Positions 15,614 through 63,213 of a stretch of 64,000 nt of DNA are shown here, in pieces; the stretch's first letter is position 1, and every line of letters starts with the position of its first letter. Source of the stretch: Candidatus Latescibacterota bacterium (GTDB lineage: Bacteria; Latescibacterota; UBA2968). The position numbers and the translations under genes were made by a program. The stretch is from the NCBI GenBank assembly GCA_965198115.1, contig OZ240241.1, positions 5,152,001-5,216,000 on the forward strand. Reading direction: 5' to 3'. The notes below the pieces were generated by a model. The model saw only the letters and a program-made list of their open reading frames with translations, was not told the DNA's origin and made no database searches.

Positions 15614-17033
15614 GGCTCTATCCGGGTTTCTCAACGGTGAAACTATAGAATGACAAGGTCATAGATCGTTCCCTACGCTTGGTTGTGTGTGTAGGACAAT
15701 CAAAGCGAAGGGGGTGCGACCTATGACCGGGAGCAGATTACTATCGAAACTGCTGAGATTCAAGGGGTTCCGTGTTGTCAGCTGGTGGTTTGAGGGGAGA
15801 AGCTGCTTCGTCATCGCCGTAAAGCCACATAAGAATGGTTGTTGTTGTCCGGAGTGCGGCCGTCGAGGTAAAATCGTCCGCACAATGCCCCATCCGCGTC
15901 GGTGGCGTGACATTCCGGTGTGCGGGTGGAGGGTCTGGCTTCTCTACCATCCTCGGGAGATTCGGTGTCCTACCCACGGTCGTGTGGTCGAGGAGATTCC
16001 GTGGGCGGAGCGGTTCTCTCGGGTGACGTATCGCTTCGAGTATGCCATGCTGCGCTACTGCCAGACCATGACGCAGAAGGCGGCGTCCGAGTTACTGCGC
16101 ATCTCTGCCTCGACGCTGTCGGATCTCCTTCACCGATCCATCACGCGGCTTCGTGAAGGTCATCGTATCCGAGGGCTCAAAACCATCGGGATCGACGAGA
16201 TCTCCTACGCCAAGCGTCACAGGTACGCCACGCTCGTTTACGATCTGGACCGCTCCTGCGTGGTGTGGGTTGGCCGCGGCAGGGCGCGTAAAACGATCGA
16301 TCGGTTCTTCACAGAGGCTCTCAGTCCCTACCAGAGATCCAAGATCGAGTGGGCCTGCTGCGACATGAGCGAAGCTTACATCGGAGCCATCCAGGAACAC
16401 TGTCCGAATGCCAAGCTGGTCCTCGATCGCTTTCACATCGTCAAGGCTCTCAATGCCGCCGTTGACGAGGTCCGTAAGGACCAGTGGCGTAAAGCTGCCC
16501 CGGATGAGCGCAAAGCCATGAAGGGCCTCCGATGGCTCCTCTACCGGCACTCAGCGACACGCTCCAGAGGGGATACTCGGACACTCAAAGCACTGGAGAA
16601 GGCGAACTACCGAATCTATAGAGCCTGGAGACTCAAGGACGAGTTCGAGCAGTTCTGGGAATACAAAGCGCCCTGGGCTGCCGAACGCTTCCTGAAATGC
16701 TGGACGACGTCCGCACTCAGAAGTCGACGTGAACCCCTGCGAAAGTTCGTCAGGACCCTGCGACAGCACTTCTTCGGCGTCCTCGCATTCGTGAACACGC
16801 GTCTTACCAACGCCATCGCCGAAGGCCTCAACCGAATCGTCCAAATCGTCAAGAACCGAGCCAGCGGATTCCGCACACTCGACGCATTCAACGATATGAT
16901 CTTCCTTACCGTCGGAGACATAAACATCCCTGAGCAGATTCCGAAGAGGTTCCGCACACTCTAACCGCGCCCCCATGCCAGGAACCACGGCACCTTCACC
17001 CACTTCATCTCGTTGAGAGATCCGGATATAGCC
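15614..17033 (+). mobile_element. ISL3-family element, copy 1 (1420 bp)
   Basis: IRs GGCTCTATCCGGGTTTCTCAACG and CGTTGAGAGATCCGGATATAGCC. 8-bp TSD ATAAATAA at 15606-15613 and 17034-17041. Confidence 0.95.
15723..16964 (+). CDS. ISL3-family transposase
   Basis: Zn finger CPECG...CPTH, IGIDE, CCDMSEAY, DRFH and TNAIAEGLN..VQ..K..A.GFR. ATG at 15723 follows GAAGGGGG. Confidence 0.93.
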   Translation: MTGSRLLSKLLRFKGFRVVSWWFEGRSCFVIAVKPHKNGCCCPECGRRGKIVRTMPHPRRWRDIPVCGWRVWLLYHPREIRCPTHGRVVEEIPWAERFSRVTYRFEYAMLRYCQTMTQKAASELLRISASTLSDLLHRSITRLREGHRIRGLKTIGIDEISYAKRHRYATLVYDLDRSCVVWVGRGRARKTIDRFFTEALSPYQRSKIEWACCDMSEAYIGAIQEHCPNAKLVLDRFHIVKALNAAVDEVRKDQWRKAAPDERKAMKGLRWLLYRHSATRSRGDTRTLKALEKANYRIYRAWRLKDEFEQFWEYKAPWAAERFLKCWTTSALRSRREPLRKFVRTLRQHFFGVLAFVNTRLTNAIAEGLNRIVQIVKNRASGFRTLDAFNDMIFLTVGDINIPEQIPKRFRTL

Positions 17034-17051
17034 ATAAATAAACGGTCGATC

Positions 17052-18261
17052 TCAATGTTGAGCCATTGGCCGGATCGTGTAGTTCCAGTCGCCGTGGAAA
17101 TCGTGCGGAGTGAGATCGATTTGGGTCATCTGTTCATCGGTCACCTTGACCCCGTTAGGGTAGGGTCGCTTGTCGATCTCGGAGCGTACTCGGAGACCGG
17201 CTTGAGTGGTCGTTCCGGCAATGAGATTCACGGTTGCAGCCAGGCTGACCAGGGGCTTGCCTCGCCCAGTTCATAGCGATGAAGGAGAACAGGCGATGTT
17301 CGATCTTGTTCCACTTACTAGTGCCAGGAGGGTAGTGGCATACGGTGATCGTCAGGCCAGTGCGATTCGCAAAGCGCTGCAGCTCCCACTTCCACAGCCG
17401 CGTCTTGGCGCCGTTGCTGCCGCCTGCGTCCGCCGTGATTAGCAGATGCGTCGAAGTGCCGTAGGCGGGCCGTCCCATGTTCTTCCACCAACTTCGGATC
17501 GCATTCACGGCGAAGCTGGCCGTGTCGTGATCGATACCGACACTTACCCAGCCTTCATCACGGCTCAGATCATACACTCCATAAGGGATCGCCTTGCCCT
17601 GAGCAGGCACTATGAAATCGTGTACCTTCACACGCTCCGGGTCTCCCTTGGGTCGCCATTCTCGGCCAGGATTCTTGAAGTCGCCGATCAACTCTTTCTT
17701 CTTGGTGTCCACCGAGATAACGGGAAGGCCCTGCTGCTGCTGCTGGCTAATCCGATCATCGAGGTAAACGAACTGAGCGTCCCGATCCGGGTGTGCAGAT
17801 CCCTCCCTTGTCTTCCGATTCGCCTGCAGCGTGTAATCGTGTTCGTGCAGGAGATTGGCAACGATCCTGGGGCTCACCGAATGCCCCATCGCTTGCAACT
17901 CGGCGGCCAGTTTGCGAGTGCTCTTCGATGTCCATCTCAGAGGATTGTCGTCAGGCGACCCCGCAGTCGTTGGCTCGACCAGATCATTCAGGTCCTGCCA
18001 CAGCGTCGGGTCCGTGTCGGCCTTCCGCTTACGACCGCCGCCTGGACGCCGGATGCGAGCCGGGTCCAAAGGTTCGTCCGACCTCAACTCCTGAATGCCA
18101 CGAAAGATCCGCTCTCTGGACATTCCTGTCGCCAGAGCCACAATCGCGATCCCACCGTGACCCAACGCTTCGGCTTCCGTGGCGGCCCACAGACGACGCG
18201 TGCGTTCCGTCAGCACCGGAGCCAAGGCTTCATACTTCGTTCGGAGAGTTTCGACGTCCAC
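17052..18261 (-). pseudogene. ISAzo13-family transposase with a +1 frameshift near 17265
   Basis: Motifs LRWTSKS, PDRDAQF, ISVDTKKKE, ADAGGSN and PPGTSKWNKIEHRLF. An extra G in AACTGGGCGAGG separates the C-terminus NWRGKPL...FHGDWNYTI. Confidence 0.88.
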
Positions 18262-18349
18262 ACTCCGAGCGTAAGATCATTACCTTGAAAAGTGCAGCAC
18301 TTATTTCGTGGCAAACCCTAAGCGGTGTAGGGGAACGCGCGATACGCAT

Positions 18350-18439
18350 TGTCACCCCTGCATGCTTCTGAGCCGGGGCCAAATTTGATCTTCGCAAAGG
18401 TTAAAATGGATCTCGGCTCAACACACCGCCGGGATGACA
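18350..18439. repeat. About 90-bp MITE/REPIN-like element, family B copy 1
   Basis: TGTCACCCC...GCCGGG...ATGGATCTCGGC...CCGGGATGACA. Homologous copies at 19842 and 26242. Confidence 0.8.
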
Positions 18440-18450
18440 CCCCTCGTCTT

Positions 18451-18623
18451 CCTGGTTCCCAAGCTCTGCCTGCGAATCCCTAATTGACGACATTGACGCT
18501 TGCCCTCGTGCTCTGCACGGGGCGTGGTGTTCAACACCGGAGGTTCTTTGTCCCCGTGCGGAGCACGGGGACGAGCGGGGGACGTTGTCAAGGGACGATC
18601 CAGGGCAGAGCCCCTGGAACGAG
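18451..18623. repeat. Nested palindromic REP-like cluster, family A
   Basis: GTTCCCAAGCTCTGCCTGCGAA ... CTCGTGCTCTGCACGGGG ... TGTCCCCGTGCGGAGCACGGGGACGAG ... CAGGGCAGAGCCCCTGGAACGAG. Confidence 0.75.
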
Positions 18624-18628
18624 GCCTT

Positions 18629-19756
18629 TCACCCTCGCTTCTTCCGCCACGCCTCGATGAGATCCGGATTCAACTCGCAGCCCAAGCCGGGTTTGTCAGG
18701 CACCGGCAGACTCGAATCCTCCATGACCAACTCTTCAGTCACCGCACCCCAATTGTTTCGCGTGGCGCCCGAGGACTCCATGTAGAAGGCATTGCTCATG
18801 TTGGCCATGACGTGACAGCGGGCGTAGGTCGTCACTGGACCTGAATCGTGGGGAGCGACGGCCACACCGTGGGTCTTCGCGATCACGCCGATGCGTTTGA
18901 TCTCCGTTATGCCGCCCACCCAGGCCAGGTCGGGATTCACGATCGAAACCAGATTCCGCTCGATGAATGGCAGGATTTGGAAGCGAGACTGGCTGTACTC
19001 TCCACACATCAAAGGGACTCTACAATCTCGAGCGAGCGCCGCCCAGGGCTCGACACTGTCTTCAATCATCGAACATTCGAAGAACATCAGATCGAACGGC
19101 TCCATGGAACGGATGATGCGTGTGGCGCCGTGCACATCCCACGTCGGGTGGTGATCGATACCGACATCGAAGTCGAGCCCGCCCGCCTCCTTGATCCACC
19201 CCATCTTCTCGACTCCACTCGCAACTTCCTTCGGCGTGGCGTGACGCCACAGGAACTGCTGGCTTGGGTCAGCGGTTTCGATCACTGAAAACGGACCGGT
19301 CTTGGCCGCCTTCCAGCCCTGTTCCATCAACGACCGAACCTTCCCCTGAACCTCCTCCTTGGTCGACCCTTCGATCCCGCCCGTGCTGTAGATCGGAACC
19401 CGATCTCGACACGGCCCGCCCAGCAGTTGGACGACGGGCGCGTCGAGCGCCTTACCGCTGATGTCCCAGAGCGCCATGTCGATCGCGCTCATGGCGCGGC
19501 GAGCGGCCCCCGTATTTCCATAGGGCGTCGCGAACATGAACAACCGTTCCCAGATGCGTTCGACGTGGCGCGGATCCTGACCAACGATATGGTTAGGCGT
19601 CCAGTCTTTGATGATTGCGATGATCTCGTTCGGGCGGCGGTTGAGCTCACCCAGCCCGGTCAGGCCTTCGTCCGTATGCACGAGAATCCAGGCATGGTCG
19701 GACGGGAGCTTGGAATCTTCTGTCTGCTGAATAATTTCGACGTCGGTGATCTTCAT
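18629..19756 (-). CDS. Mandelate racemase/muconate lactonizing enzyme family (acid-sugar dehydratase-like)
   Basis: Motifs MKITDVE, TDEGLTGLGE, SAIDMALWDI.GK, LLGG.CR, metal ligands D..E..E and PGLG.EL. Confidence 0.9.
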   Translation of the reverse strand: MKITDVEIIQQTEDSKLPSDHAWILVHTDEGLTGLGELNRRPNEIIAIIKDWTPNHIVGQDPRHVERIWERLFMFATPYGNTGAARRAMSAIDMALWDISGKALDAPVVQLLGGPCRDRVPIYSTGGIEGSTKEEVQGKVRSLMEQGWKAAKTGPFSVIETADPSQQFLWRHATPKEVASGVEKMGWIKEAGGLDFDVGIDHHPTWDVHGATRIIRSMEPFDLMFFECSMIEDSVEPWAALARDCRVPLMCGEYSQSRFQILPFIERNLVSIVNPDLAWVGGITEIKRIGVIAKTHGVAVAPHDSGPVTTYARCHVMANMSNAFYMESSGATRNNWGAVTEELVMEDSSLPVPDKPGLGCELNPDLIEAWRKKRG

Positions 19757-19841
19757 TGTGAACTCCCCTGTATCCGATCGGGCACAGCACGACGAGGAAG
19801 CCCGCTGAAGCGGGCTAAGATGGAATCTCCGCGACAAACAT

Positions 19842-19957
19842 TGTCACCCCGGTATGCTTCTGAGCCGGGGCCCATTTTGATCTTCGCGAAAAGCTAAAAT
19901 GGATCCCGGCCCAACACACCGCCGGGAATTCCTAGCTCCCAGGCTCTGCCTGGGAAC
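19842..19957. repeat. Family B element copy 2 followed by CTCCCAGGCTCTGCCTGGGAAC
   Basis: Near-identical to 18350-18476, in direct orientation. Confidence 0.8.
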
Positions 19958-20026
19958 TCCTTCACACAGGCCTTTCGCTATGGCACTGCTATGCGACGTG
20001 GCGTAGGCGGCTGCGTTGAGACCCTC

Positions 20027-21478
20027 TTAAAGCGCCTTCGGGTAGAGCCCGTATTCGATCTTGATCTCCACGTCCTCGATCACGACTCCTCCCCCAAGAC
20101 CTTCGGGTCGCTCGTGCAAGCATATGGTCAACAGGTTCGCTCCTTGCTTTGGTCGAGATGCATCAAGCGCGAACTCCAACAATTGTCCGGCATAGGGGTC
20201 TCTCGTTCGAATCGAACTACGACGGCACGACCCTGGCTGCAGAGGGTTGCCGTTCAGCGCGATCTCGAGCTGGTCGCGCGATACGAGATTACTGACGGCG
20301 ACTCTCAGTAGGATACTCCGAATGTGGTCGTTCGTCGGATCATCGGCGATCGAAAAAGGCACCTCGTAAACGCGTCCGGGCTCGGCATTCGGGATTTCCA
20401 GAGGAAGATGTGCAGGATAATCATATTCCTTGGCATCCTCGCATCGTCGTCGGAGAAAGTAATGTTTGTCCGTCCCCCCGATGCGCCCGGGATCACCCAA
20501 TTCGGTCAGCGTGCTGCGCTCGGTGTCGCCCAAAGGCCACGGCAGAAACCATGTGTAAAGCCCATCGACATCGAGCGCCCATAGGTTGGCCGCGGCAGCG
20601 CGCATCATTTCTGGCGACGCATTTTCCGGCCTATTGAAACGACGGCTCTCATTGTGTCGATAGGGCTGCAACATCGCATAGACCGACGCATCTACGTCGT
20701 GTGCGGCCTCGACGAGCCAGCCGATCGGCATGTTTGCATCCAGGATGAAATCCAGGTAGAGCATGGGAACGACAAAATCGACGAGCCCATCCTGCAGCCA
20801 CGTACCCACATCGAGTCCCGTCTTCAGGTTCAGCGCTTCGGTCGGATACACGCGCGCACCGACCTGAGCCGGACTGCCCTGCCCGCCACGAATCCTCTTC
20901 GAGGCCTCACGAACGAAATCGGTCATCAACTCCGTGTTGGCGGCCATATCGTCCGGCTTCAGCCAGAAGGGGCTGCCCCCTGGGGATGCCGCGAAGTCCA
21001 ACTCGACGCCTTCGACCTCATACTTCGTCCCGAGCTCTTCCACGACAGACAGCTGATGGCCACGCACCTCCTGATGGAGGAAGCCGCCGCCACCGTTCGT
21101 GACCGCGTGGTCGGCATCCATTCCCCCGTAGGCGCCCATCCGGAGGCTCGCGATGAAATCCATGCCTTTTTCGTGCGCCCTGTCGATCAGCACGGTCAAC
21201 GGATCGAGCCCACGCTGAATCAGGCTCTGCATGTTGTGCCACGTTCGCCATTCGTGCGACCGCTCCGGGGTCTCCAAATCTTCACAGAATTGTAGACCGA
21301 CCTTGGAAGGGTAGAACAGGCCGTCCGCTCTCGAGACGCCATAGGCGAACGTATCCACCGCTGTATCCGCCACTTCATCCACAGGCACCCACGCATCCTC
21401 CATCCTCATCGGCGGTTCGAAGACGAAGAGGTAGTAGTGACGCGCGTCGTTGAAATAGATCGTTCGTCGTTTTCGCAT
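20027..21478 (-). CDS. Glycoside-hydrolase-like TIM-barrel protein (GHL10-like)
   Basis: Motifs IYFND, YPSKVG, DPL..LIDRAHEKGM..IASLRM, Y.VEGVELDF and GLDV.TW...GLVD. Confidence 0.55.
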   Translation of the reverse strand: MRKRRTIYFNDARHYYLFVFEPPMRMEDAWVPVDEVADTAVDTFAYGVSRADGLFYPSKVGLQFCEDLETPERSHEWRTWHNMQSLIQRGLDPLTVLIDRAHEKGMDFIASLRMGAYGGMDADHAVTNGGGGFLHQEVRGHQLSVVEELGTKYEVEGVELDFAASPGGSPFWLKPDDMAANTELMTDFVREASKRIRGGQGSPAQVGARVYPTEALNLKTGLDVGTWLQDGLVDFVVPMLYLDFILDANMPIGWLVEAAHDVDASVYAMLQPYRHNESRRFNRPENASPEMMRAAAANLWALDVDGLYTWFLPWPLGDTERSTLTELGDPGRIGGTDKHYFLRRRCEDAKEYDYPAHLPLEIPNAEPGRVYEVPFSIADDPTNDHIRSILLRVAVSNLVSRDQLEIALNGNPLQPGSCRRSSIRTRDPYAGQLLEFALDASRPKQGANLLTICLHERPEGLGGGVVIEDVEIKIEYGLYPKAL

Positions 21479-21511
21479 AGGGAGGTCCCTTTAGCTTCCC
21501 GGCACAATCAT

Positions 21512-21745
21512 CCTGGTTCCCAGGCTCTGCCTGGGAACACCCCACAGAAGGAAGGCGCCACTCTTGCCCCCGTGCTCAGCACGGGGGCGCTCGGTTGTGA
21601 ATCCAGATTCTCTGTCCCCGTGCAACCACAGTGAAGAGCACGGGAGGCCGGCGTGACGGTGTTAGATTCTCTGTCACCGTGCAGGGCACGGGGACGAGCG
21701 TACGCCGTGGCACTTAAGCATTCCAGGGCGGAGCCCCGGAACGAG
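21512..21745. repeat. Nested palindromic REP-like cluster, family A
   Basis: GTTCCCAGGCTCTGCCTGGGAAC ... CCCCCGTGCTCAGCACGGGGG ... CCGTGCAGGGCACGGGGACGAG ... TTCCAGGGCGGAGCCCCGGAACGAG. Confidence 0.75.
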
Positions 21746-21801
21746 GTGTTGCAGTGTTTCTCGCTGCGCTCTCTGCGTCCTCTGCGTTGAAAGGGGTTTC
21801 C

Positions 21802-23124
21802 CTATGGCCTCGCCGGGTCGTGCGCCCGTGGCAGGAAAGGATTGTCCGCGGGTTCCTGGCCCCCGTAGAACCAACTGAGCGGCAAAACTTTCAGCTTCTG
21901 GTTGAAGCCACCTTCTTTCCGACTGCTCAGAACCATTTCCGCCCGGTCGGGATGGTGTTCGTAGACCGAATAGGTGTGGGCGATCAACACCCTGTCATCC
22001 ATTACAAAGACGGATGGATATGACCAGCGACCGTGGAAATCGACTTGGCGAACGTGTTCGACCTCGCGCTCGGGCGCCGGAAAGCCCGGATCGAAGTAGA
22101 CCTCGGCTGGGCGCAGCGGCCGAATCGGCCCCGGCTCGACTCGCGTCTCCTCGTGCATGGACTCGACGTTCTGGAAGAATTCCCAGATCCCACCACCGTT
22201 CCGGCTGACGGCCGACGAGATACGCGTTCGGTTGTATCCTCGCTTCACGTCTACTTCGGATTCCTGATTCCAAACGACCAGCAGATGTCCATTGCGCAGA
22301 GTTCTGATCTGTGCCGGCGTCGTCGAGGCTGCCAGTGCCGTGGGTTGTGGTCTCGTCCACGTCTCTCCATTGTCATCCGACCAGGCCTGGAACAGCCGTC
22401 CAAGTCCGGTTCGCATCGTCATCAGGAGTCTGCCGGGAACGACTTCCGTCACGGACGGCTCGTTGGTGTAGCTGTAGCTCGCGTTCCAGTCGTTCAGGAT
22501 GATGAGCTCGCCATCCTTGTTCTGCTCCCACGTGCGGCCCTCGTCATCCGAATAGCACACGTAAGAGCAGGAGAAGTGAGGGTCGAAAAAATGCGCAGCC
22601 GTCCCAACCCACTGGCCGTTCACGAGTTTGCCGGTTGAGGGAGATGCGGCGTCGTTCAGGCTGGATGCTTGACCCATACTCGTGTAAACGGGAAGAATGA
22701 TCCGGCCGGATGTCGTTCGGAGAAGCACATCCTGGTAGGCATAGGTCCGGACCGCCGGAGATGTCACCTCAACAGGTGGCTCCCAGGTCTGACCACCGTC
22801 TTCGGAACGCCAGAACAGAAGGTGCGTGTTCTTCTGGGACGGCACGCGTCCCGTAGGCGATCTCCACATCGCAGCAAGCCCGACACCGCCCTCAGACAGC
22901 CTGACGAGAGACGTCCCACCCCCACCGACGGGATTTCCCTCCGTGTCGCTGCACTCGAAAGGCTCGGACCACGTCAGCCCGCCATCTTTGGACGTGGTAA
23001 AGGTCGTTCCCGCAGCGTGCAAGATCCGGCCGTCGTCCAGTTCAACGAACGTCGAGGAATGGAAGTAGGTCGTCTCGTGAACGGCCAGAGCCTCTTCCGG
23101 CCGCGTCATTGGAACGTTGCTCAT
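21802..23124 (-). CDS. BNR/Asp-box sialidase-like protein
   Basis: Five Asp-boxes (SKDGGLTW, SEDGGQTW, SDDEGRTW, SDDNGETW, SRNGGGIW) and a SYPS motif. Confidence 0.8.
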   Translation of the reverse strand: MSNVPMTRPEEALAVHETTYFHSSTFVELDDGRILHAAGTTFTTSKDGGLTWSEPFECSDTEGNPVGGGGTSLVRLSEGGVGLAAMWRSPTGRVPSQKNTHLLFWRSEDGGQTWEPPVEVTSPAVRTYAYQDVLLRTTSGRIILPVYTSMGQASSLNDAASPSTGKLVNGQWVGTAAHFFDPHFSCSYVCYSDDEGRTWEQNKDGELIILNDWNASYSYTNEPSVTEVVPGRLLMTMRTGLGRLFQAWSDDNGETWTRPQPTALAASTTPAQIRTLRNGHLLVVWNQESEVDVKRGYNRTRISSAVSRNGGGIWEFFQNVESMHEETRVEPGPIRPLRPAEVYFDPGFPAPEREVEHVRQVDFHGRWSYPSVFVMDDRVLIAHTYSVYEHHPDRAEMVLSSRKEGGFNQKLKVLPLSWFYGGQEPADNPFLPRAHDPARP

Positions 23125-23265
23125 TGAACACCTTCGCTTTCAGCCTTCAGGAATCCCGTTGCCTTCAGGTCACCGGGGAGGCAAAATACGGGCGTTCCAG
23201 CCGCCGGGCACGACAAATTGGATCACACCACTCCGACAGCCTTAAAAGAGAAACCGAGGAAGACC

Positions 23266-24033
23266 ATGCAGACCAACCGAGTACGTCAGAAGGTACGCGC
23301 CGGACAGCCCACGATAGGCAGCTTTCTCGGATTGGGAAGCCCGAACGTGGCGGAATTGATGGCCCACGCGGGGTTCGACTGGCTCGTCATCGAGACGGAG
23401 CACAACAGCCTGGACTCGGCCGAAATCGAGCACATGCTCATGGCCATCAGCGGGACGAGCACGGTCCCGCTCGTGAGGGTACCCTCTTCGAACCACGTCT
23501 ACATCCAGCGGGCGCTGGACATGGGAGCAATGGGGATCGTCGTGCCGTTCGTGAAAACACCCGAGGAAGCGGAGGCGATTGTAAGCGCGACACGATTCCC
23601 CCCTGAAGGCACGCGAAGTTGGGGGCCGCTCCGAGCATCGAACTACACGTTCGACAATGAAGACTATCTCAGACGGGCGAACGACAACATGCTCGTCGTC
23701 CTCATCCTGGAGGCGAAAGAAGCCGTCGAGAATCTCGAAAGCATTGCGGCCGTTCCCGGCGTCGACGTCCTCAACATCGGCCCGTGGGACCTCTCATTGT
23801 CTCTCGGCCTGGACCCACTAAAGCTGCCTTTGCCTGAAGTCGACGCCATCACCGATCGCGCGATCGAAATCGGGCGAAAGCACGGCACGGTAGTGGGCTC
23901 CGGATGCGGACGACCCGAGGATATCTCCGGCTTAATCGAGAAGGGCATCCGATTCGTCACCTATGGCCCCGACTACGGGCTCCTGACCAATGCGGCACGG
24001 GCCGCGATCGACGCGTTCAGCCAGGCAACGTAA
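23266..24033 (+). CDS. HpcH/HpaI class II aldolase family
   Basis: Motifs AGFDWLVIETEH, PLVRVP, ALDMGAMG, E..EAVENL..I and IGP.DLS. Confidence 0.9.
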   Translation: MQTNRVRQKVRAGQPTIGSFLGLGSPNVAELMAHAGFDWLVIETEHNSLDSAEIEHMLMAISGTSTVPLVRVPSSNHVYIQRALDMGAMGIVVPFVKTPEEAEAIVSATRFPPEGTRSWGPLRASNYTFDNEDYLRRANDNMLVVLILEAKEAVENLESIAAVPGVDVLNIGPWDLSLSLGLDPLKLPLPEVDAITDRAIEIGRKHGTVVGSGCGRPEDISGLIEKGIRFVTYGPDYGLLTNAARAAIDAFSQAT

Positions 24034-24080
24034 GATGCGACCGGTCTGCCGGCCCCGGGCTCCCGCCCGGGCCCATTCAA

Positions 24081-24258
24081 GTTGCGAGACGCTCCGCTCT
24101 CCCCCGTGCTCCGCACGGGGGCACATTAATGTCCAAATGCTACCACAAGATTTCACTTCGGTGATCCTGCTCGATTCGCCAAAGTGTCCCCGTGCGGAGC
24201 ACGGGGACGAGCGAAGGTGGTGGTATTTGGACGTTGCGGGGCAGAGCCCCGCAACGAG
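24081..24258. repeat. Nested palindromic REP-like cluster, family A
   Basis: CCCCCGTGCTCCGCACGGGGG ... TGTCCCCGTGCGGAGCACGGGGACGAG ... GCGGGGCAGAGCCCCGCAACGAG. Confidence 0.75.
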
Positions 24259-24296
24259 GCCCCTAACTATCTTCGATGGCACGAGAACATTGTTCG

Positions 24297-25319
24297 TCAA
24301 AACCGATTGCCCTCATTCCGATCGAACGGTGTCTCGACACCCATCTCCTCAGCCAGCTTCCGTAGCCGATCTTCGTGGTCAGGCCTGACGGGAATACCAG
24401 CCTCCCGGTTGTCCCTTTCCCACTCCCACTCGACCCCACCTGCCAGATCTGCGCGGTCCTGACCGGCCAGCGGTTTGGTCGATCGTGCCTCACCGATGAA
24501 TCGATCCATCTCCGTCTTGAACTCGGTGACGTCCCCGAAACGCTTCACATCGAATACCGAGATGAAAGCTCCCTGATGAGCAGCAGCATACTCGCCTTCA
24601 CCCGAGTACTCGAACCCCTCGCTCCAGATTCCGGCAAGGATTCCTCCGAGAACCTGGAAGACCGTCCCCAGGCCAAGAGCCTTGAAGAACGTCGTCGGAA
24701 ACATCTTCATCAGATCTTCGTCGTGTCGCAAGAACGACGCTGACATGTCCAGAACGAGAGGCGGTTGCTCGCCCGAAGGAATCGCGATGCTCATGGGCGA
24801 CCCACCCGACGCGCTCATCACGGTCGCCTCCGGGTTCGGACGGTATCTATGTGAGGAAATCGCCAGTCCGATGCAATCGTGGGGCAACGCCATCCTCGAG
24901 TAGTTCCCCGCAGCCCCAAAGTGGAAATGATTCCGCGTTGTGACCGTCGCAGAACCCACATCGAGCGCTTTTTCGATCGCGATCTCCGTCCCACGATGGG
25001 AAGCGAAGTAGCCCAACCCACCATCACCATCGACCACCGCCGTGGCCGGCGACTCGGACACGATTGAAACGTCGGGGTTCGGGTTCGCCTTCCCTTCCCG
25101 GATCTGAGGTACATAGCCGCTGACCTGCTGAGTTCCGTGACTGAACACACATCTGAGATCGTTCGCCGTGAGCGTAACAGCCATGTGGTCGGCGCGATCG
25201 TCCGAAACACCCACGGACTGGAAAAGGGCACAAATGAACGTTTCCATTTCATCGACCGGGATGCGGATTCCGGTGGTCGGGAGAATGTTTCGGCGACCGG
25301 TGTCCGGGCGGGCTTTCAT
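24297..25319 (-). CDS. Type 2 malate/L-lactate dehydrogenase (Ldh_2) family oxidoreductase
   Basis: Motifs DLR...SHG, VDGDGGLG, N..HFGAAG.Y and PLVLDMS. Confidence 0.85.
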   Translation of the reverse strand: MKARPDTGRRNILPTTGIRIPVDEMETFICALFQSVGVSDDRADHMAVTLTANDLRCVFSHGTQQVSGYVPQIREGKANPNPDVSIVSESPATAVVDGDGGLGYFASHRGTEIAIEKALDVGSATVTTRNHFHFGAAGNYSRMALPHDCIGLAISSHRYRPNPEATVMSASGGSPMSIAIPSGEQPPLVLDMSASFLRHDEDLMKMFPTTFFKALGLGTVFQVLGGILAGIWSEGFEYSGEGEYAAAHQGAFISVFDVKRFGDVTEFKTEMDRFIGEARSTKPLAGQDRADLAGGVEWEWERDNREAGIPVRPDHEDRLRKLAEEMGVETPFDRNEGNRF

Positions 25320-25340
25320 CGGGATGCCTCCGTGTTAAGT

Positions 25341-25375
25341 GGTGTTCGGTGTTCGGTGTTCGGTGTTCGGTGTTC
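25341..25375. repeat. Heptamer tandem repeat (GGTGTTC)x5
   Basis: Read directly from the sequence, in an intergenic position. Confidence 0.9.
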
Positions 25376-25411
25376 AGAAAAACAGAAGGTCTTCAAGAGT
25401 CGTGAATCAAA

Positions 25412-26152
25412 TCATCCTTCTTTCAAGAAGTCATGGAAAATCTCCGCGTAGCCTTCGGTGTAGTCCATCTCCAGGTAATAGGCCCCGAGGTATTCACGCG
25501 GAACGAAGTCAGAGAGATCGTAAGTCGGCGTCGGGTTGAACTGCACCACACCGTCTCCGGCGCGGCATTCGTGCACGATTACATCGGTCGTCACATTCGA
25601 TGCATCCACGATCTGCATCACATCCGCCCCTTTCCCGTCCGCACGGGGAATCACTTTCAACCTCAAAGACGGCTGAAGCTTCAGCATCTCCTCGGCTGAT
25701 GCTTCCCGATGCATCGTCGATCGCACGCTCATCATGGAGGTTCCTGCCAGGTACGTGTCCGTCACCATCACTCGCTCTTCCATCCTGACATCCATCTCCG
25801 CAAACACCTTGGGCGTGCCGTAAATCTCACGTCCCGCCGGTATGCTCGACCGGGAGTTCAGAAATACGGCCGGCGCAAAGAAGACCTCATTACCCTCATA
25901 CTGACACTTCACCACCAGAACGCTCTCGTCGAACGCCCCGTAGTTTGCCGACCACGGGACGGTCAACCCGATCGCCGCACAGAAGCCATCCTCCGACGGC
26001 TCGAAGCACGCCGGCAGAACGCGATCGACTGCCGACACGTCCGCCCGAAAGTAGACGTACTGAAAGCGTGCATGCCTATACCGTGCCGGCGGCATCGGAT
26101 AGTACGGAGAGAACGCTGGCATGTTCACGATCTGATCAAGGGGAATTGACAT
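25412..26152 (-). CDS. Acetoacetate decarboxylase (ADC) family protein
   Basis: GREIYGTPK motif with the Schiff-base Lys, and LKVIPRADG. Confidence 0.85.
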   Translation of the reverse strand: MSIPLDQIVNMPAFSPYYPMPPARYRHARFQYVYFRADVSAVDRVLPACFEPSEDGFCAAIGLTVPWSANYGAFDESVLVVKCQYEGNEVFFAPAVFLNSRSSIPAGREIYGTPKVFAEMDVRMEERVMVTDTYLAGTSMMSVRSTMHREASAEEMLKLQPSLRLKVIPRADGKGADVMQIVDASNVTTDVIVHECRAGDGVVQFNPTPTYDLSDFVPREYLGAYYLEMDYTEGYAEIFHDFLKEG

Positions 26153-26241
26153 CGGGATTCCTTGGAAAGTGGTTTGTCTTATCGCAACAGTGGGCCGTGG
26201 AGTTACTACGTGTGAGACGAAAGCCCTTGCGTGTGAAGAGT

Positions 26242-26337
26242 AATGTCACCCCGGTACGCTTCCTGGCCGGGCTCCATCTGCCCCTTTCGCAAAGAAGAAA
26301 AATGGATCCCGGCTCAAAAGCACACCGGGATGACATT
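26242..26337. repeat. Family B element copy 3
   Basis: AATGTCACCCCGG...GCCGGG...ATGGATCCCGGC...CCGGGATGACATT, with terminal inverted repeats. Confidence 0.78.
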
Positions 26338-28501: not shown

Positions 28502-28910
28502 ACTTCCGTCACGGTCTTTTTGACTTATCATGCCGACGCATTCGGATCCCTTCGCTTAAAGCCTCTGAAGGAGTACGCACACGATGGCTTCCCGTTTTCT
28601 TCCCTTCACGCAAACGGACCCTTCCGACACCGCCACGGCACTCGCCGCTCGATTCGCAGAGGACGGATACCTCTTCGTCAAGAGCTTGATCGACAAACCG
28701 AAGATCGATCGGATCAGCGAGCGCATCACTGAGGAACTGAAGGCTCACGGCTTCGTCACTCCAGACAGCACCTCCATCCCGATCTGGACCGGCAAGGCCC
28801 CCGAGTCCGATGACGTTCTTCCTGAAGGACCGATCATCACCGCCATCGCCGAGACTGGCGTGCTGAGCGACCTGTCCCGCTCGCCCGAGCTCATCGTGCT
28901 TCTTAAAAAA

Positions 28911-30294
28911 GGCTATATCCGGATCTCTCAACGAGATGAAGTGGGTGAAGGTGCCGTGGTTCCTGGCATGGGGGCGCGGTTAGAGTGTGCGGAACCTCTT
29001 CGGAATCTGCTCAGGGATGTTTATGTCTCCGACGGTAAGGAAGATCATATCGTTGAATGCGTCGAGTGTGCGGAATCCGCTGGCTCGGTTCTTGACGATT
29101 TGGACGATTCGGTTGAGGCCTTCGGCGATGGCGTTGGTAAGACGCGTGTTCACGAATGCGAGGACGCCGAAGAAGTGCTGTCGCAGGGTCCTGACGAACT
29201 TTCGCAGGGGTTCAAGTCGACTTCTGAGTGCGGACGTCGTCCAGCATTTCAGGAAGCGTTCGGCAGCCCAGGGCGCTTTGTATTCCCAGAACTGCTCGAA
29301 CTCGTCCTTGAGTCTCCAGGCTCTATAGATTCGGTAGTTCGCCTTCTCCAGTGCTTTGAGTGTCCGAGTATCCCCTCTGGAGCGTGTCGCTGAGTGCCGG
29401 TAGAGGAGCCATCGGAGGCCCTTCATGGCTTTGCGCTCATCCGGGGCAGCTTTACGCCACTGGTCCTTACGGACCTCGTCAACGGCGGCATTGAGAGCCT
29501 TGACGATGTGAAAGCGATCGAGGACCAGCTTGGCATTCGGACAGTGTTCCTGGATGGCTCCGATGTAAGCTTCGCTCATGTCGCAGCAGGCCCACTCGAT
29601 CTTGGATCTCCGGTAGGGACTGAGAGCCTCTGTGAAGAACCGATCGATCGTTTTACGCGCCCTGCCGCGGCCAACCCACACCACGCAGGAGCGGTCCAGA
29701 TCGTAAACGAGCGTGGCGTACCTGTGACGCTTGGCGTAGGAGATCTCGTCGATCCCGATGGTTTTGAGCCCTCGGATACGATGACCTTCACGAAGCCGCG
29801 TGATGGATCGGTGAAGGAGATCCGACAGCGTCGAGGCAGAGATGCGCAGTAACTCGGACGCCGCCTTCTGCGTCATGGTCTGGCAGTAGCGCAACCGCTC
29901 CGCCCACGGAATCTCCTCGACCACACGACCGTGGGTAGGACACCGAATCTCCCGAGGATGGTAGAGAAGCCAGACCCTCCACCCGCACACCGGAATGTCA
30001 CGCCACCGACGCGGATGGGGCATTGTGCGGACGATTTTACCTCGACGGCCGCACTCCGGACAACAACAACCATTCTTATGTGGCTTTACGGCGATGACGA
30101 AACAGCTCCTCCCCTCAAACCACCAGCTGACAACACGGAACCCCTTGAATCTCAGCAGTTTCGATAGTAATCTGCTCCCGGTCATAGGTCGCACCCCCTT
30201 CGCTTTGATTGTCCTACACACACAACCAAGCGTAGGGAACGATCTATGACCTTGTCATTCTATAGTTTCACCGTTGAGAAACCCGGATAGAGCC
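28911..30294 (-). mobile_element. ISL3 copy 2 (1384 bp, 36-bp in-frame deletion in the transposase)
   Basis: Same IRs as copy 1. TSD TTAAAAAA at 28903-28910 and 30295-30302. ORF 28980-30221 lacks FSRVTYRFEYAM. Confidence 0.95.
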
Positions 30295-30303
30295 TTAAAA
30301 AAG

Positions 30304-31723
30304 GGCTATATCCGGATCTCTCAACGAGATGAAGTGGGTGAAGGTGCCGTGGTTCCTGGCATGGGGGCGCGGTTAGCGTGTGCGGAACCTCTTCGGAATC
30401 TGCTCAGGGATGTTTATGTCTCCGACGGTAAGGAAGATCATATCGTTGAATGCGTCGAGTGTGCGGAATCCGCTGGCTCGGTTCTTGACGATTTGGACGA
30501 TTCGGTTGAGGCCTTCGGCGATGGCGTTGGTAAGACGCGTGTTCACGAATGCGAGGACGCCGAAGAAGTGCTGTCGCAGGGTCCTGACGAACTTTCGCAG
30601 GGGTTCAAGTCGACTTCTGAGTGCGGACGTCGTCCAGCATTTCAGGAAGCGTTCGGCAGCCCAGGGCGCTTTGTATTCCCAGAACTGCTCGAACTCGTCC
30701 TTGAGTCTCCAGGCTCTATAGATTCGGTAGTTCGCCTTCTCCAGTGCTTTGAGTGTCCGAGTATCCCCTCTGGAGCGTGTCGCTGAGTGCCGGTAGAGGA
30801 GCCATCGGAGGCCCTTCATGGCTTTGCGCTCATCCGGGGCAGCTTTACGCCACTGGTCCTTACGGACCTCGTCAACGGCGACATTGAGAGCCTTGACGAT
30901 GTGAAAGCGATCGAGGACCAGCTTGGCATTCGGACAGTGTTCCTGGATGGCTCCGATGTAAGCTTCGCTCATGTCGCAGCAGGCCCACTCGATCTTGGAT
31001 CTCTGGTAGGGACTGAGAGCCTCTGTGAAGAACCGATCGATCGTTTTACGCGCCCTGCCGCGGCCAACCCACACCACGCAGGAGCGGTCCAGATCGTAAA
31101 CGAGCGTGGCGTACCTGTGACGCTTGGCGTAGGAGATCTCGTCGATCCCGATGGTTTTGAGCCCTCGGATACGATGACCTTCACGAAGCCGCGTGATGGA
31201 TCGGTGAAGGAGATCCGACAGCGTCGAGGCAGAGATGCGCAGTAACTCGGACGCCGCCTTCTGCGTCAAGGTCTGGCAGTAGCGCAGCATGGCATACTCG
31301 AAGCGATACGTCACCCGAGAGAACCGCTCCGCCCACGGAATCTCCTCGACCACACGACCGTGGGTAGGACACCGAATCTCCCGAGGATGGTAGAGAAGCC
31401 AGACCCTCCACCCGCACACCGGAATGTCACGCCACCGACGCGGATGGGGCATTGTGCGGACGATTTTACCTCGACGGCCGCACTCCGGACAACAACAACC
31501 ATTCTTATGTGGCTTTACGGCGATGACGACGCAGCTTCTCCCCTCAAACCACCAGCTGACAACACGGAACCCCTTGAATCTCAGCAGTTTCGATAGTAAT
31601 CTGCTCCCGGTCATAGGTCGCACCCCCTTCGCTTTGATTGTCCTACACACACAACCAAGCGTAGGGAACGATCTATGACCTTGTCATTCTATAGTTTCAC
31701 CGTTGAGAAACCCGGATAGAGCC
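30304..31723 (-). mobile_element. ISL3 copy 3 (1420 bp)
   Basis: Same IRs. Flanked by TAAAAAAG at 30296-30303 and 31724-31731. ORF 30373-31650. Confidence 0.95.
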
Positions 31724-31730
31724 TAAAAAA

Positions 31731-33147
31731 GGCTATATCCGGATCTCTCAACGAGATGAAGTGGGTGAAGGTGCCGTGGTTCCTGGCATGGGGGCGCGGT
31801 TAGAGTGTGCGGAACCTCTTCGGAATCTGCTCAGGGATGTTTATGTCTCCGACGGTAAGGAAGATCATATCGTTGAATGCGTCGAGTGTGCGGAATCCGC
31901 TGGCTCGGTTCTTGACGATTTGGACGATTCGGTTGAGGCCTTCGGCGATGGCGTTGGTAAGACGCGTGTTCACGAATGCGAGGACGCCGAAGAAGTGCTG
32001 TCGCAGGGTCCTGACGAACTTTCGCAGGGGTTCAAGTCGACTTCTGAGTGCGGACGTCGTCCAGCATTTCAGGAAGCGTTCGGCAGCCCAGGGCGCTTTG
32101 TATTCCCAGAACTGCTCGAACTCGTCCTTGAGTCTCCAGGCTCTATAGATTCGGTAGTTCGCCTTCTCCAGTGCTTTGAGTGTCCGAGTATCCCCTCTGG
32201 AGCGTGTCGCTGAGTGCCGGTAGAGGAGCCATCGGAGGCCCTTCATGGCTTTGCGCTCATCCGGGGCAGCTTTACGCCACTGGTCCTTACGGACCTCGTC
32301 AACGGCGGCATTGAGAGCCTTGACGATGTAGCGATCGAGGACCAGCTTGGCATTCGGACAGTGTTCCTGGATGGCTCCGATGTAAGCTTCGCTCATGTCG
32401 CAGCAGGCCCACTCGATCTTGGATCTCCGGTAGGGACTGAGAGCCTCTGTGAAGAACCGATCGATCGTTTTACGCGCCCTGCCGCGGCCAACCCACACCA
32501 CGCAGGAGCGGTCCAGATCGTAAACGAGCGTGGCGTACCTGTGACGCTTGGCGTAGGAGATCTCGTCGATCCCGATGGTTTTGAGCCCTCGGATACGATG
32601 ACCTTCACGAAGCCGCGTGATGGATCGGTGAAGGAGATCCGACAGCGTCGAGGCAGAGATGCGCAGCAACTCGGACGCCGCCTTCTGCGTCATGGTCTGG
32701 CAGTAGCGCAGCATGGCATACTCGAAGCGATACGTCACCCGAGAGAACCGCTCCGCCCACGGAATCTCCTCGACCACACGACCGTGGGTAGGACACCGAA
32801 TCTCCCGAGGATGGTAGAGAAGCCAGACCCTCCACCCGCACACCGGAATGTCACGCCACCGACGCGGATGGGGCATTGTGCGGACGATTTTACCTCGACG
32901 GCCGCACTCCGGACAACAACAACCATTCTTATGTGGCTTTACGGCGATGACGAAACAGCTTCTCCCCTCAAACCACCAGCTGACAACACGGAACCCCTTG
33001 AATCTCAGCAGTTTCGATAGTAATCTGCTCCCGGTCATAGGTCGCACCCCCTTCGCTTTGATTGTCCTACACACACAACCAAGCGTAGGGAACGATCTAT
33101 GACCTTGTCATTCTATAGTTTCACCGTTGAGAAACCCGGATAGAGCC
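31731..33147 (-). mobile_element. ISL3 copy 4 (1417 bp, 3-bp deletion DRFH>DRY)
   Basis: Same IRs. Followed by TTAAAAAA at 33148-33155. ORF 31800-33074. Confidence 0.95.
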
Positions 33148-33944
33148 TTAAAAAAGTCCTCGGTGGCGAAATCTTCGCGTGGGAAGACAGTGACGCCCGA
33201 CTGAGGATCGTGCTCGGTCCCGCCGCCACTCGCGAAGGATCGACCGATGCCCTCAAGTTCTCCTTCAGCACCCCACCCCACCAGGACTTCTACTTCTTTC
33301 GGCCCGTGCGATTCTGTACGGTCTGGATTCCGCTGATGGAGATCGACGAAACCACCGGTGGCTTGACCCTGCGACAAAACGCCCACGAGGAAGGTCTTCA
33401 CGAAATCTGGTGGAAGGGCAAAGAATTCCTCGGCATGGCCGAAACGCCCCAGATCGCACGGGAGTGGGCGGAGTCGGGAGCGGTCCCCGTGGCCGGGACG
33501 GCCCGGCCCTCCGATGCAGACCAGGATAAACCCTGGCTCCGCTCCGACTTTGAAATCGGCGACGCCCTGATCATCGACCCGCTCATGATCCACGCCGGTG
33601 TGCCCAACCATTCGAATCTGATCCGACTCTCAGTCGACTTCCGCTATCAGCTTCAGAGCACGCAGACACATTGGGAGTCGCACAACACCATGGAGTACGC
33701 GGGAGAATACTTTTCCGGTGTGCTGGAGTGTATCGACGGTCTCGATCTGAAACCGGGCACCTACGAAAATGTCTGGGAAAGGATGCGTCTCGCCGGCCCG
33801 GATGATCGTACGGGCGTCCCTGAACGAGTACGGGTCCTCGTCGATGAAATGCAATAGCTGTGGATGGATCGGTATCGCGGACCCCTCGCCTACGCTCGGA
33901 ACAGGCTCTTTGGCCCGCTTTATTTTCGCGCTGCTATTAAATTA

Positions 33945-44310: not shown

Positions 44311-45939
44311 CCTGAATTATGCATAAAAAAGGTAGTCTCCTTGTACAAGTGTTTGTTTTTCCCTACATTAGGGCTGACACATCAAAACAACACTTGGAAG
44401 GAACTACCGTGATAGAACCTAGTCAGATCCGGTTACCATTCGCAAGCATTTCGGGCAAGGTAGTTGAGGCTGATTTTGCCGGTGGCGCCGTCAGGAGTGA
44501 CGGTGGAGTTCTGTTGCTTCGCGCCCTTGAGTCTCAGATGGGATTGATCGCCAGAATGGTAGATGCTTTGCGAGATCGTCGTCACCCAAGCTATATCGAT
44601 CACACGCTTTTGGATCTTGTGAAGCAGCGTGTTTTTCAGATCGCTTGCGGCTATGAAGATGCCGTCGATTGTGATGATTTGCGCCACGATCCGGGCGTCA
44701 AGGCTGCCTGCGATCGGCTTCCTCTTTCCGGTCCTGATCTCGGGAGCCAATCAACGATGACACGACTTGAGAATGATGTGCGACGCTCGGATTTGTATCG
44801 GCTCGCACGGGCTTTTGTAGACGGGTTCATCGCATCGTATGACCAGGCACCCCCAAGCATCATTCTCGATATCGACGACACGGATGACCCAACGCACGGT
44901 GCGCAACAATTTTCACTCTTCAACGCGTATTACAATGAACACTGCTATATGCCGCTACATATCTATGAAGGCCAAAGCGGCAAGCTCATTACGACGATCT
45001 TGAGACCCGGGCATCCGACGAACGGTAAACAGGTCGTTTCTATTCTCAAGCGCTTGGTGGAACACCTACGCGGATCTTGGCCAAACGTGGAGATCATCGT
45101 TCGCGCAGACTCAAAGTTCAGCTCACCAGAGATGCACGATTTCTGCGAAGACAACGGTATCTACTACGTTCTGGGCCAGGGCGCCAACTCCAAGCTCAAA
45201 GCGGCTGGACAAAACCTGATGGACCAAGCGCTACGTCTGAGCGAGCATAAGGAGACGATTCGCTTGTTCTCATCCTTCTCATATCAGGCTGGCACCTACC
45301 GGCAGCCTCGCCGGATCATTCACAAGGCTGAAGTCACAAACGGCGAAGCAAATCCAAGATACCGCGTGACCAATTTACAGAGTAATCGAGACGGCTTTAT
45401 CTATGATCGTATCTACTGCGCAAGGGGACGCACGGAAGGCTTCATCAAGGACCACAAAACATTCCTTCACTCCGATCGAACATCGTGCCACAAGTTTGAA
45501 GCCAACCAGTTCCGACTCTTTCTACACAGTGCTGCATACACCTTGCTTCACGCACTCCGATCACAGGGACTCAAGGGCACCGCGTGGACCAAACCTCAGG
45601 TCAACACGATACAGAACCGTTTCCTCAAAATCGGCGCGAGAGTCATTGAAAGCGCACGAAGAATCCGATTCCATTTTCCAACATCGTATCCACTCAAAAA
45701 CGTCTTGGTGTCAATCATCACCAGGCTCGAAACGAACACGCAGTAACAACGCCGATCTATACCGGGGACAGCTATGTACACGTCGCAAAACAACACCTGT
45801 TCCGGACGAAAATCGTGACTCTTGCGACTCGTAGAGACCGCTTACGGGACCTTGGACATCCGAAGAAGCCGAGAACAAATCCTGTGCGTGATCACATCAC
45901 TCCAAAACAACCTAAACTCAAATTCATGCATGATTCAGG
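44311..45939 (+). mobile_element. IS1380-family element
   Basis: IRs CCTGAATTATGCAT and ATGCATGATTCAGG, flanked by CTAT and CTAG. Confidence 0.9.
44409..45746 (+). CDS. IS1380-family transposase
   Basis: Motifs SDGGVLLL, GYEDA.D, LDIDDTDDPTHG.Q, VRADS.F and Y..RG..E..IK. GTG start after GAAGGA. Confidence 0.93.
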   Translation: MIEPSQIRLPFASISGKVVEADFAGGAVRSDGGVLLLRALESQMGLIARMVDALRDRRHPSYIDHTLLDLVKQRVFQIACGYEDAVDCDDLRHDPGVKAACDRLPLSGPDLGSQSTMTRLENDVRRSDLYRLARAFVDGFIASYDQAPPSIILDIDDTDDPTHGAQQFSLFNAYYNEHCYMPLHIYEGQSGKLITTILRPGHPTNGKQVVSILKRLVEHLRGSWPNVEIIVRADSKFSSPEMHDFCEDNGIYYVLGQGANSKLKAAGQNLMDQALRLSEHKETIRLFSSFSYQAGTYRQPRRIIHKAEVTNGEANPRYRVTNLQSNRDGFIYDRIYCARGRTEGFIKDHKTFLHSDRTSCHKFEANQFRLFLHSAAYTLLHALRSQGLKGTAWTKPQVNTIQNRFLKIGARVIESARRIRFHFPTSYPLKNVLVSIITRLETNTQ

Positions 45940-52866: not shown

Positions 52867-53658
52867 TTGCAACTGACTGACCAGCAACTGAACCATTTTC
52901 AGACATTCGGATTTCTGATCTTTCGACAGCTTCTTTCGCCAGACGAGATAGCCCGATATGGTGTTGAATTCAACACGGGTCTGGACACGTGGCTCGATGG
53001 CGGAGAGCACGATCGAAAGGAGCCCCACTACGCTTCGCTGATGGAAGAAGCGTCCCCCTTCATCGCGTCGTTGGCAGACGACCCGCGCTTCGCCGACGTT
53101 GCGGAACAATTGTTCGGGAAAGCGATGATGTGTATCGCAGTGGACGGGAATTACATGGTGGGCGACACGAAGTGGCACCCCGATACAAATTCGCTGGACT
53201 ACGAAGCAGTCAAGTTCTGCGTCTATCCTGATCCGTTGAACGCAAGCAACGGTGCCCTCCGCGTGATCCCGGGCTCACATCGGGAGCCCCTCCACAGCGC
53301 GCTCAGCCGCGATCCCCAAACCACGTTCGGCCTTTCTCCAGCGGATCTACCTGCTTACGCCTTCGAGTCCAGCCCGGGCGACCTGATTGTCTTCAATGTG
53401 GGAGTATGGCACGCGTCGTTCGGAGGTGGGAATCATCGCCGACAGGGCGTTGTCGTCTACTACGAAGAGCCCGACACGCCGGAAGCGACCGAAAAGGTCC
53501 AGGAACAGATGCACGGCAACCACAAGATGTTCGCGCGAAAGGGTCGGAACATGTACGGCGATCACTGGCGGTCCATTGACGATCCCCGACACCAACGGTG
53601 GCTTCGTCGCCTGGATGAGCTCGGCGTGCTCGAAACGCCGTCAGAGGAAGAGATTTAG
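52867..53658 (+). CDS. PhyH-family dioxygenase
   Basis: Motifs TFGFL, WHPD, GALRVIPGSH, WHAS and RR. Confidence 0.88.
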   Translation: MQLTDQQLNHFQTFGFLIFRQLLSPDEIARYGVEFNTGLDTWLDGGEHDRKEPHYASLMEEASPFIASLADDPRFADVAEQLFGKAMMCIAVDGNYMVGDTKWHPDTNSLDYEAVKFCVYPDPLNASNGALRVIPGSHREPLHSALSRDPQTTFGLSPADLPAYAFESSPGDLIVFNVGVWHASFGGGNHRRQGVVVYYEEPDTPEATEKVQEQMHGNHKMFARKGRNMYGDHWRSIDDPRHQRWLRRLDELGVLETPSEEEI

Positions 53659-53706
53659 CGGGAAGAAGAAAGCTACCGACCTGAGGCCAGAGACAGATCG
53701 GTGCCT

Positions 53707-54498: not shown

Positions 54499-54546
54499 CC
54501 GAGGTTCCTCCTGAAGAACGCGCTCACGTGTGCCGGCCTTGAGTCG

Positions 54547-55722: not shown

Positions 55723-55879
55723 GGCTCGCACTCTCCTCTTTCGGCGTCACATTTGGCCGTCATCATTTTCTCGACGTTCGGCCATCCATATCGCATCTTG
55801 CTCTGCCGCTATATACGGAATGTTGCCGGCAAGAGCGAATCGCTGAGAGGCCACACCCTCAATCAGGAAGAGGTTGAAA

Positions 55880-56743: not shown

Positions 56744-56767
56744 CCGACAACTCTGAGGTACGAATCG

Positions 56768-62337: not shown

Positions 62338-62370
62338 ACGCGAGTTTCGGTGCCCAAAAGGGGCCTCGAC

Positions 62371-63117: not shown

Positions 63118-63213
63118 TCTTGTTACGGATAACACGCGGTCGTGATTGGAGAGGAAGCATCTGATGGATGACAAACTGACGACACAGCGGGAGCCCGGAG
63201 CGAAGGTCGGGAC

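Follow-up and report, generated by a model that had tools for sequence, protein, structure and literature searches.

Three copies of an ISL3-family insertion sequence (IS) lie head to tail at one target site in a PhyH-family dioxygenase gene of a Candidatus Latescibacterota bacterium (assembly GCA_965198115.1, contig OZ240241.1). This trimer is real, and it consists of three separate insertions that each duplicated 8 bp, the middle copy having captured one base of the inverted repeat (IR) of its neighbor. It is one instance of an outcome that is common in this genome. We consider it probable that the element, while blooming to about 230 copies, landed three times by ordinary transposition on a single very strong AT-rich target, with direct repeats surviving. 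Coordinates without a prefix refer to the 64,000-nucleotide stretch that was analyzed (the window; positions 5,152,001 to 5,216,000 of the contig), and those marked G000 refer to the whole-genome contig of 8.43 Mb.

Three insertions at one site in a PhyH gene

The three copies, numbered 2 to 4 from left to right, occupy positions 28911-30294, 30304-31723, and 31731-33147, all on the minus strand. They are enclosed by an outer 8-bp target duplication, TTAAAAAA, which lies on the plus strand at 28903-28910 and again at 33148-33155. Upstream is the 5′ part of the interrupted PhyH-family gene (28584-28910, plus strand, with the open reading frame [ORF] starting at 28584), and downstream is its 3′ part (33156-33857, plus strand; Pfam PhyH, E 9e-12). 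When the array and one duplication are removed in silico, the gene reads through as an open frame of 342 codons (...LLKKVL...), whose alignments to three paralogues (E 5e-17 to 6e-11) span the insertion site. The trimer layout within the PhyH gene that was given in a preliminary description of the window, with its coordinates and spacers, was accurate. The accompanying account of variants was incomplete: the single-nucleotide polymorphisms (SNPs) it cited are present in the assembly, but it missed an in-frame deletion of 36 bp in copy 2, common to four other genomic copies, and one of 3 bp in copy 4, common to one other copy (G000:6264120). Copy 3 is full length (1420 bp), copy 2 has 1384 bp (ORF 28980-30221), and copy 4 has 1417 bp (ORF 31800-33074).

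The junctions, read on the plus strand, record how the array was built. Copies 2 and 3 are separated by 9 bp, TTAAAAAAG (30295-30303), which contain both the copy 2 duplication and a duplication belonging to copy 3 (30296-30303). Copies 3 and 4 are separated by 7 bp, TAAAAAA (31724-31730), which together with base 31731, the first G of the right IR of copy 4, form the other duplication of copy 3. Both spacers come from the local target, and the base that one lacks is the one that the other has in excess. An exhaustive back-search found exactly three valid orders of insertions that duplicate 8 bp (2,4,3; 4,2,3; and 4,3,2), all of which require that copy 3 has its own duplication, TAAAAAAG, shifted by 1 bp and including the first G of the IR of copy 4. 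The search thereby upholds the earlier explanation of the unequal spacers by such a shift. From these orders we infer that copy 4 was inserted before copy 3, while copy 2 could have arrived at any point.

Public sequencing runs support the array. The flank is present in three runs, of which X1 and X2 represent one sample, possibly the source of the assembly itself, and X3 represents a second sample. Contigs of these runs collapse variants and do not phase the three copies on one molecule, and copy-specific SNPs rest on the assembly. Flank-to-element joins on both sides occur in X1 and X2 at a depth of ~12, equal to the depth of the flank, compared with ~2400 for the body of the element. The 9-bp junction is present as an exact contig in both runs (X1, 52 nt at depth 12.2; X2, 53 nt at depth 12). 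For the 7-bp junction, a simulated unitig of 52 nt covering 30272-30325 is matched by an X1 record at depth 13, identified from its length and position and not from its sequence; the other 7-bp junctions of the genome predict unitigs of different lengths, and both trimer junction unitigs are unique among the element ends of the assembly. Among the matches listed for X1, X2, and X3, there was no joint that skips the array, as an empty site would give, in contigs that drop rare forms. No junction record was among the matches listed for X3, which is uninformative at its flank depth of ~1 to 5.

No natural empty allele was found: the DNA of the locus occurs in none of 30 related genomes, and the 3′ half of the PhyH gene in none of the 30 at E 1e-15. 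A search for junction promoters found no sigma-70-like sites at 30150-30450.

ISL3 arrays and target re-use across the genome

The transposase of copy 3 matches Pfam DDE_Tnp_ISL3 (PF01610, E 1.4e-67) and PF13542 (E 5e-9), with a match to PF14690 (E 3e-5) slightly below its cut-off; these matches include HTH and Zn-ribbon domains. The element ends are 22 bp long and match as IRs at 19 of 22 positions. Members of the ISL3 family typically start with GG and measure 1.3 to 1.55 kb. We counted 227 near-full copies in the contig, 159 of them 1420 bp long and 172 with an open transposase frame. Among 194 single copies, the 8-bp duplication is perfect in 125 and has one mismatch in 23. The element is part of an extreme IS bloom (227 near-full ISL3 copies, together with ~76 ISAzo13 and 38 IS1380 ends), and ~12% of genome positions fall in 24-mers present ten or more times. 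At 8.4 Mb, the genome compares with 3.6 to 6.5 Mb in the 30 relatives searched, where no close homologue of this ISL3 was found and distant transposase homologues occurred in only 3.

Adjacent ISL3 copies form 22 pairs in 20 arrays (18 dimers and 2 trimers), and all 22 pairs are head to tail. The trimer had been regarded as unusual, a view that these counts do not bear out. Sequential 8-bp insertions fully resolve 9 of the 20 arrays (the trimer and 8 dimers); 3 others have an intact outer duplication around a spacer foreign to the site, 2 have 5-bp spacers, and 6 have flanks that are rearranged or missing. The pattern of 7 bp plus an extra base also occurs in 3 other dimers. In the second trimer (G000:2210968-2215058), the first copy is truncated and the poly-A spacers measure 7 and 8 bp. 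No head-to-tail self-pair was seen among 49 + 6 loci of related ISL3 elements elsewhere, or in 4 whole low-copy genomes, where none is expected at such copy numbers.

Single copies give a target consensus of G-C, eight A/T bases, and G-C (GC-W8-GC), and such sites are rare in a genome of 59% GC. Under a weight-matrix model of the target, the empty PhyH site is among the top 115 positions of the genome. It scores 7.31 before insertion, and each IR-flanked duplicate scores 7.45 to 7.62 afterward, the gain coming from the C at −1 and the G at +1 that the IR ends contribute. Every insertion thus replaces one strong site with two of equal or higher score.

Copies of ISAzo13 and IS1380, each with a good ISL3 site near one end, served as calibrators for the rate at which strong sites are hit. 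ISL3 occupies 25 of 76 such sites in ISAzo13 and 12 of 38 in IS1380, 37 of 114 in total. Examples in the window are the ends at 17034-17060 and ~44312-44340; about a third of such ends are interrupted. A birth model run at the calibrator rate, with only direct repeats surviving, predicts that 18% of occupied sites hold arrays and 3% hold trimers. At the calibrators, 5 of 37 occupied sites adjoin an array, where ~7 would be expected passively; those 5 sites represent four arrays, two of them with site-derived spacers. By this calibration, re-use does not exceed what passive insertion would give, and active self-targeting is therefore not needed. The earlier proposal that the element seeks out its own duplication/IR junction is not borne out by this comparison.

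Two further kinds of junction occur among the arrays. The dimers with 5-bp spacers lie at G000:426047-428898 and 3711002-3713042; 5 bp is the length of the circle junction given for an ISL3-like transposon in the relevant part of PMC5559704, and in the dimer at 3711002-3713042, the spacer is identical to the five bases that end the duplication of the downstream copy. A 9-bp spacer, AATAAAAAA, recurs in three arrays (G000:174130-176901, 467238-470085, and 1644045-1646893). In two of these, the outer duplication is intact but does not match the spacer, and the upstream copies share one haplotype. This combination suggests that a dimer junction moved as a unit.

The single copies with a one-mismatch duplication (23 of 194) are far above chance, which is 2.7% for random flank pairs. 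In 12 of the 23, the mismatch is at position 1, beside the right IR on the downstream side. Possibly, donor-junction bases were kept at integration, or conversion tracts ended in A/T runs.

Orientation, donors, and alternative explanations

The orientation bias reported in the preliminary description is real, with 22 of 22 junctions direct. Single insertions at calibrator sites occur in both orientations (22:15, p 0.32). An intrinsic strand bias of insertion was rejected (A-rich versus T-rich duplications 58:46, p 0.28). An inverted pair would form a palindrome with 1.4-kb arms and an 8-bp spacer. Long palindromes in Escherichia coli are excised or inviable, according to the part of PMC3855049 consulted, and sbcD is present in this genome. 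Only 3 long inverted ISL3 pairs lie ≤300 bp apart, every one with a spacer of >230 bp. At G000:4251772-4253780, there is a head-to-head remnant, made up of a full copy and a short derivative with the center deleted, whose flanks fit two duplications shifted by one base. The partner in this remnant resembles a 623-bp derivative at G000:3876345-3876967 that carries ~300 bp of foreign sequence. The bias is likely a survival filter, produced by the loss of palindromic dimers.

The variants first used to tell donors apart, TGT (a Cys codon) and YRRSK in copies 2 and 4, are the majority alleles genome-wide, and two copies drawn at random agree at both sites in 27% of cases; being common and unlinked, they say little about donors. 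No linkage is seen among the seven most common SNPs (r2 ≤0.064), and common SNPs are unlinked even 21 to 48 bp apart; there are 180 haplotypes among the 227 copies. Common SNPs were rejected as donor tags, with all four gametes found in every pair. They were likely shuffled among copies by recombination, with consensus mixing as an alternative. Copy 1, a single copy outside the array that served for comparison (15614-17033, plus strand; it abuts the AT-rich terminal site of an ISAzo13 element), was ruled out as the donor of copy 3, from which it is 5 variants apart.

The idea that the copies came from different donors holds up in part. There are 8, 8, and 4 variant differences between neighbors in the trimer, and every copy has a relative at distance 1 elsewhere; for copy 3, this nearest haplotype is the copy at G000:6262693. 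Adjacent pairs in general differ by a mean of 4.95 variants versus 5.44 for random pairs (p 0.56, 20 pairs), a comparison that is weakened by SNP shuffling. Rare variants are linked (7/7 and 4/4), and rare markers of copies 3 and 4 recur in the two members of one other dimer (G000:6262693-6265536; post hoc permutation p 0.002, 0.008, and 0.063 at three thresholds). Independent draws do not predict this sharing. A single burst from one donor locus may have supplied copies 3 and 4, or the two may have exchanged sequence later.

In the account that we consider most likely, ISL3 circles integrated three times by copy-out-paste-in, a route reported for the family, with the circle step taken from passages of PMC9333248 and PMC5559704. 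Each insertion re-created a strong target, where the next could land, and one insertion slipped 1 bp into an IR. Stacks of opposite orientation were likely lost as unstable palindromes, and SNPs were probably shuffled later among copies by recombination.

Besides the shared rare markers, several findings weigh against this account. Simple re-insertion leaves 11 of the 20 arrays unaccounted for. The weight matrix alone predicts ~10.6 re-insertions in both orientations and ~5 after the purge, against 10 that are fully explained, and the passive fit holds only insofar as the matrix under-predicts calibrator sites ~2- to 8-fold. Array sites outscore single sites only weakly (median 6.3 versus 4.9, p 0.097; 9 arrays, 109 sites), and re-insertion would in fact be more frequent than observed if direct repeats had collapsed. 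The purge is drawn from one remnant and the E. coli literature, and long-read assembly could also drop palindromes. An IR base was captured in 4 of 10 re-insertions versus ~0.6 expected (P 0.003). This capture is the best hint of an effect of the resident end, and passive re-use leaves it unexplained.

The main rival explanation is active end-directed targeting. Transposase bound to a resident IR would recruit circles, set the polarity of right and left IRs (IRR-IRL), and shift the cut register while still making an 8-bp duplication. We regard this as possible but doubtful. It fits the excess of IR-base capture, the contrast between uniformly head-to-tail junctions and the 22:15 ratio at ordinary hot sites, and the roughly twofold excess of fully explained re-insertions over the matrix-only expectation after the purge. 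The two 5-bp-spacer dimers, one with a spacer that is the end of a duplication, indicate that end-directed strand transfer likely operates in this genome, and IS30 yields only IRL-IRR junctions by such a route in the portion of PMC9333248 considered. However, arrays at calibrator sites do not exceed the passive rate, and the trimer spacers of 7 and 9 bp keep no fixed short distance. Each trimer copy has a full duplication, whereas IS30, when it targets IRs, creates a fresh IR-IR junction. There is also one remnant of an inverted re-insertion, and C/G-edge registers at the IS1380 site (at least 2 of 12) are likewise under-predicted by the matrix. A related proposal, which we consider rather unlikely, is that the resident end steers an incoming circle head to tail into the duplicated target beside the IR, often with a 1-base slip and with the full 8-bp duplication kept.

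The remaining alternatives concern the number of events. One or two copies could have arrived together, carried by a dimer or circle that either recombined with a resident copy or moved as one unit by transposition. Joint arrival is seen elsewhere, in the 3 arrays with foreign spacers and in the recurrence of AATAAAAAA, and the rare markers that link copies 3 and 4 to another dimer would fit it; we nevertheless judge it quite improbable at the trimer, where both spacers are local with a complementary missing and extra base, and the other dimer carries the markers in reverse order around a different spacer. Local amplification by unequal exchange between duplications or tandem copies might be considered on the grounds that 4 of 20 adjacent pairs differ by ≤2 variants versus 7% of random pairs, and some arrays elsewhere may be local duplicates or converted. 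The trimer neighbors are too divergent for this to be at all likely here, with closer relatives elsewhere and unlike spacers. It would be just as surprising if the copy number, the spacers, or the SNPs were long-read repeat errors. In favor of such errors, the two spacers differ within homopolymer runs, the common SNPs show no linkage even over short distances, which could reflect consensus mixing, and the supporting runs may come from the source sample, with contigs that cannot phase three copies. Yet both junctions and both flank joins are present at single-copy depth with no empty-site joint among the matches listed, 3 other dimers repeat the pattern of 7 bp plus an extra base, and rare variants are linked. 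Junction geometry, junction contigs, and neighbor divergence thus agree with the initial claim of three independent insertions as opposed to local amplification or an assembly artefact.

Other derivatives and repeats were also observed. A non-autonomous mini-element of 88 bp lies at G000:1137731-1137818, with a matching joint in run X1, and a 616-bp internal-deletion derivative is present in four copies (G000:2171797, 2305031, 3712427, and 6094442). Two same-strand copies 10 kb apart have swapped flanks (G000:4843291-4856425), an arrangement that recombination of a one-copy circle into another copy would produce. The window also contains short dispersed intergenic repeats of 45 to 75 nt that are possibly REP-like (families D8 to D10, 18338-26330) and repeat pairs of ≥300 nt with 81 to 82% identity that are probably paralogous genes (D6 and D7, 52867-57067 and 62368-63510).

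Comparison with known systems

Taken alone, the locus is of modest importance: it is a clear bacterial example of a target that is duplicated by each insertion and hit again. More can be learned from the genome as a whole, which offers ~230 near-identical ISL3 copies, 114 calibrator sites, and 22 tandem junctions. For a family whose mechanism has received little description, it provides base-level data on the target consensus, slips of the insertion register, end-to-end junctions of 5 bp, and element-adjacent duplication mismatches. Proof of end-directed targeting would add a route by which IS elements stack, within a family undergoing expansion in clinical enterococci. Steering by a resident end, if true, would be a hybrid of ordinary target capture and IS30-style IR targeting that builds stable self-stacks, and the 22 junctions would be the first census of such a route.

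A literature search found no report of stacked ISL3 arrays, with most subscription papers outside its reach. In the sections of two ISL3 papers that we drew on, a fosB ISL3-like transposon has 25-bp terminal IRs and a 5-bp circle junction (PMC5559704), and an ISL3 expansion is reported in Enterococcus faecium, with the word "tandem" occurring 0 times in the main text (PMC13216065). The element described here resembles them in its transposase, short terminal IRs, AT-rich 8-bp duplications, and high copy number (PMC5559704; PMC13216065). It departs from those sections in its self-stacked arrays, 20 in this genome. IS clusters in general have been attributed to repeated stochastic insertion at few available sites, with heavier tails above 120 IS per chromosome (PMC13548323). 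As far as the text consulted goes, that study counts mixed clusters within 2.5 kb, whereas here copies of the same element share one target at base resolution.

IS30 targets IRs and forms (IS30)2 dimers by copy-out-paste-in, a junction with a 2-base spacer being the active intermediate in the part of PMC9333248 available. The genome resembles that system in its chromosomal tandem copies, with 22 of 22 junctions IRL-IRR, one processed head-to-head remnant excepted. Unlike the IR-targeted dimers of IS30 or IS911 type, as outlined there, the trimer has spacers of 7 and 9 bp of duplicated target and no fixed circle-junction spacer. Insertion beside an IR is not above the calibrator-based rate, although it is ~2 times the matrix-only rate. 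The two 5-bp-spacer dimers elsewhere in the genome are better analogues of IS30 than the trimer is.

The closest known case is double insertion of the Drosophila P element. Its tandem dimers are described, in the relevant passages of McGurk and Barbash 2018 (PMC5932611), as double insertions into one target site during a transposition burst, with an 8-bp duplication between copies. Head-to-tail dimers greatly outnumbered head-to-head dimers there (55/85 versus 8/85 strains), which was ascribed to palindrome selection or technical bias, and bacterial dimers with target duplications between copies are cited (Dalrymple 1987; Prudhomme 2002). Set against that account, the ISL3 arrays are alike in having the duplicated local target in their junctions, with the trimer and 8 dimers resolving exactly, and in their head-to-tail excess. 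They differ in being bacterial ISL3 arrays, in reaching three copies, in 1-bp shifts that capture an IR base, and in the internal calibration that repeated sites provide.

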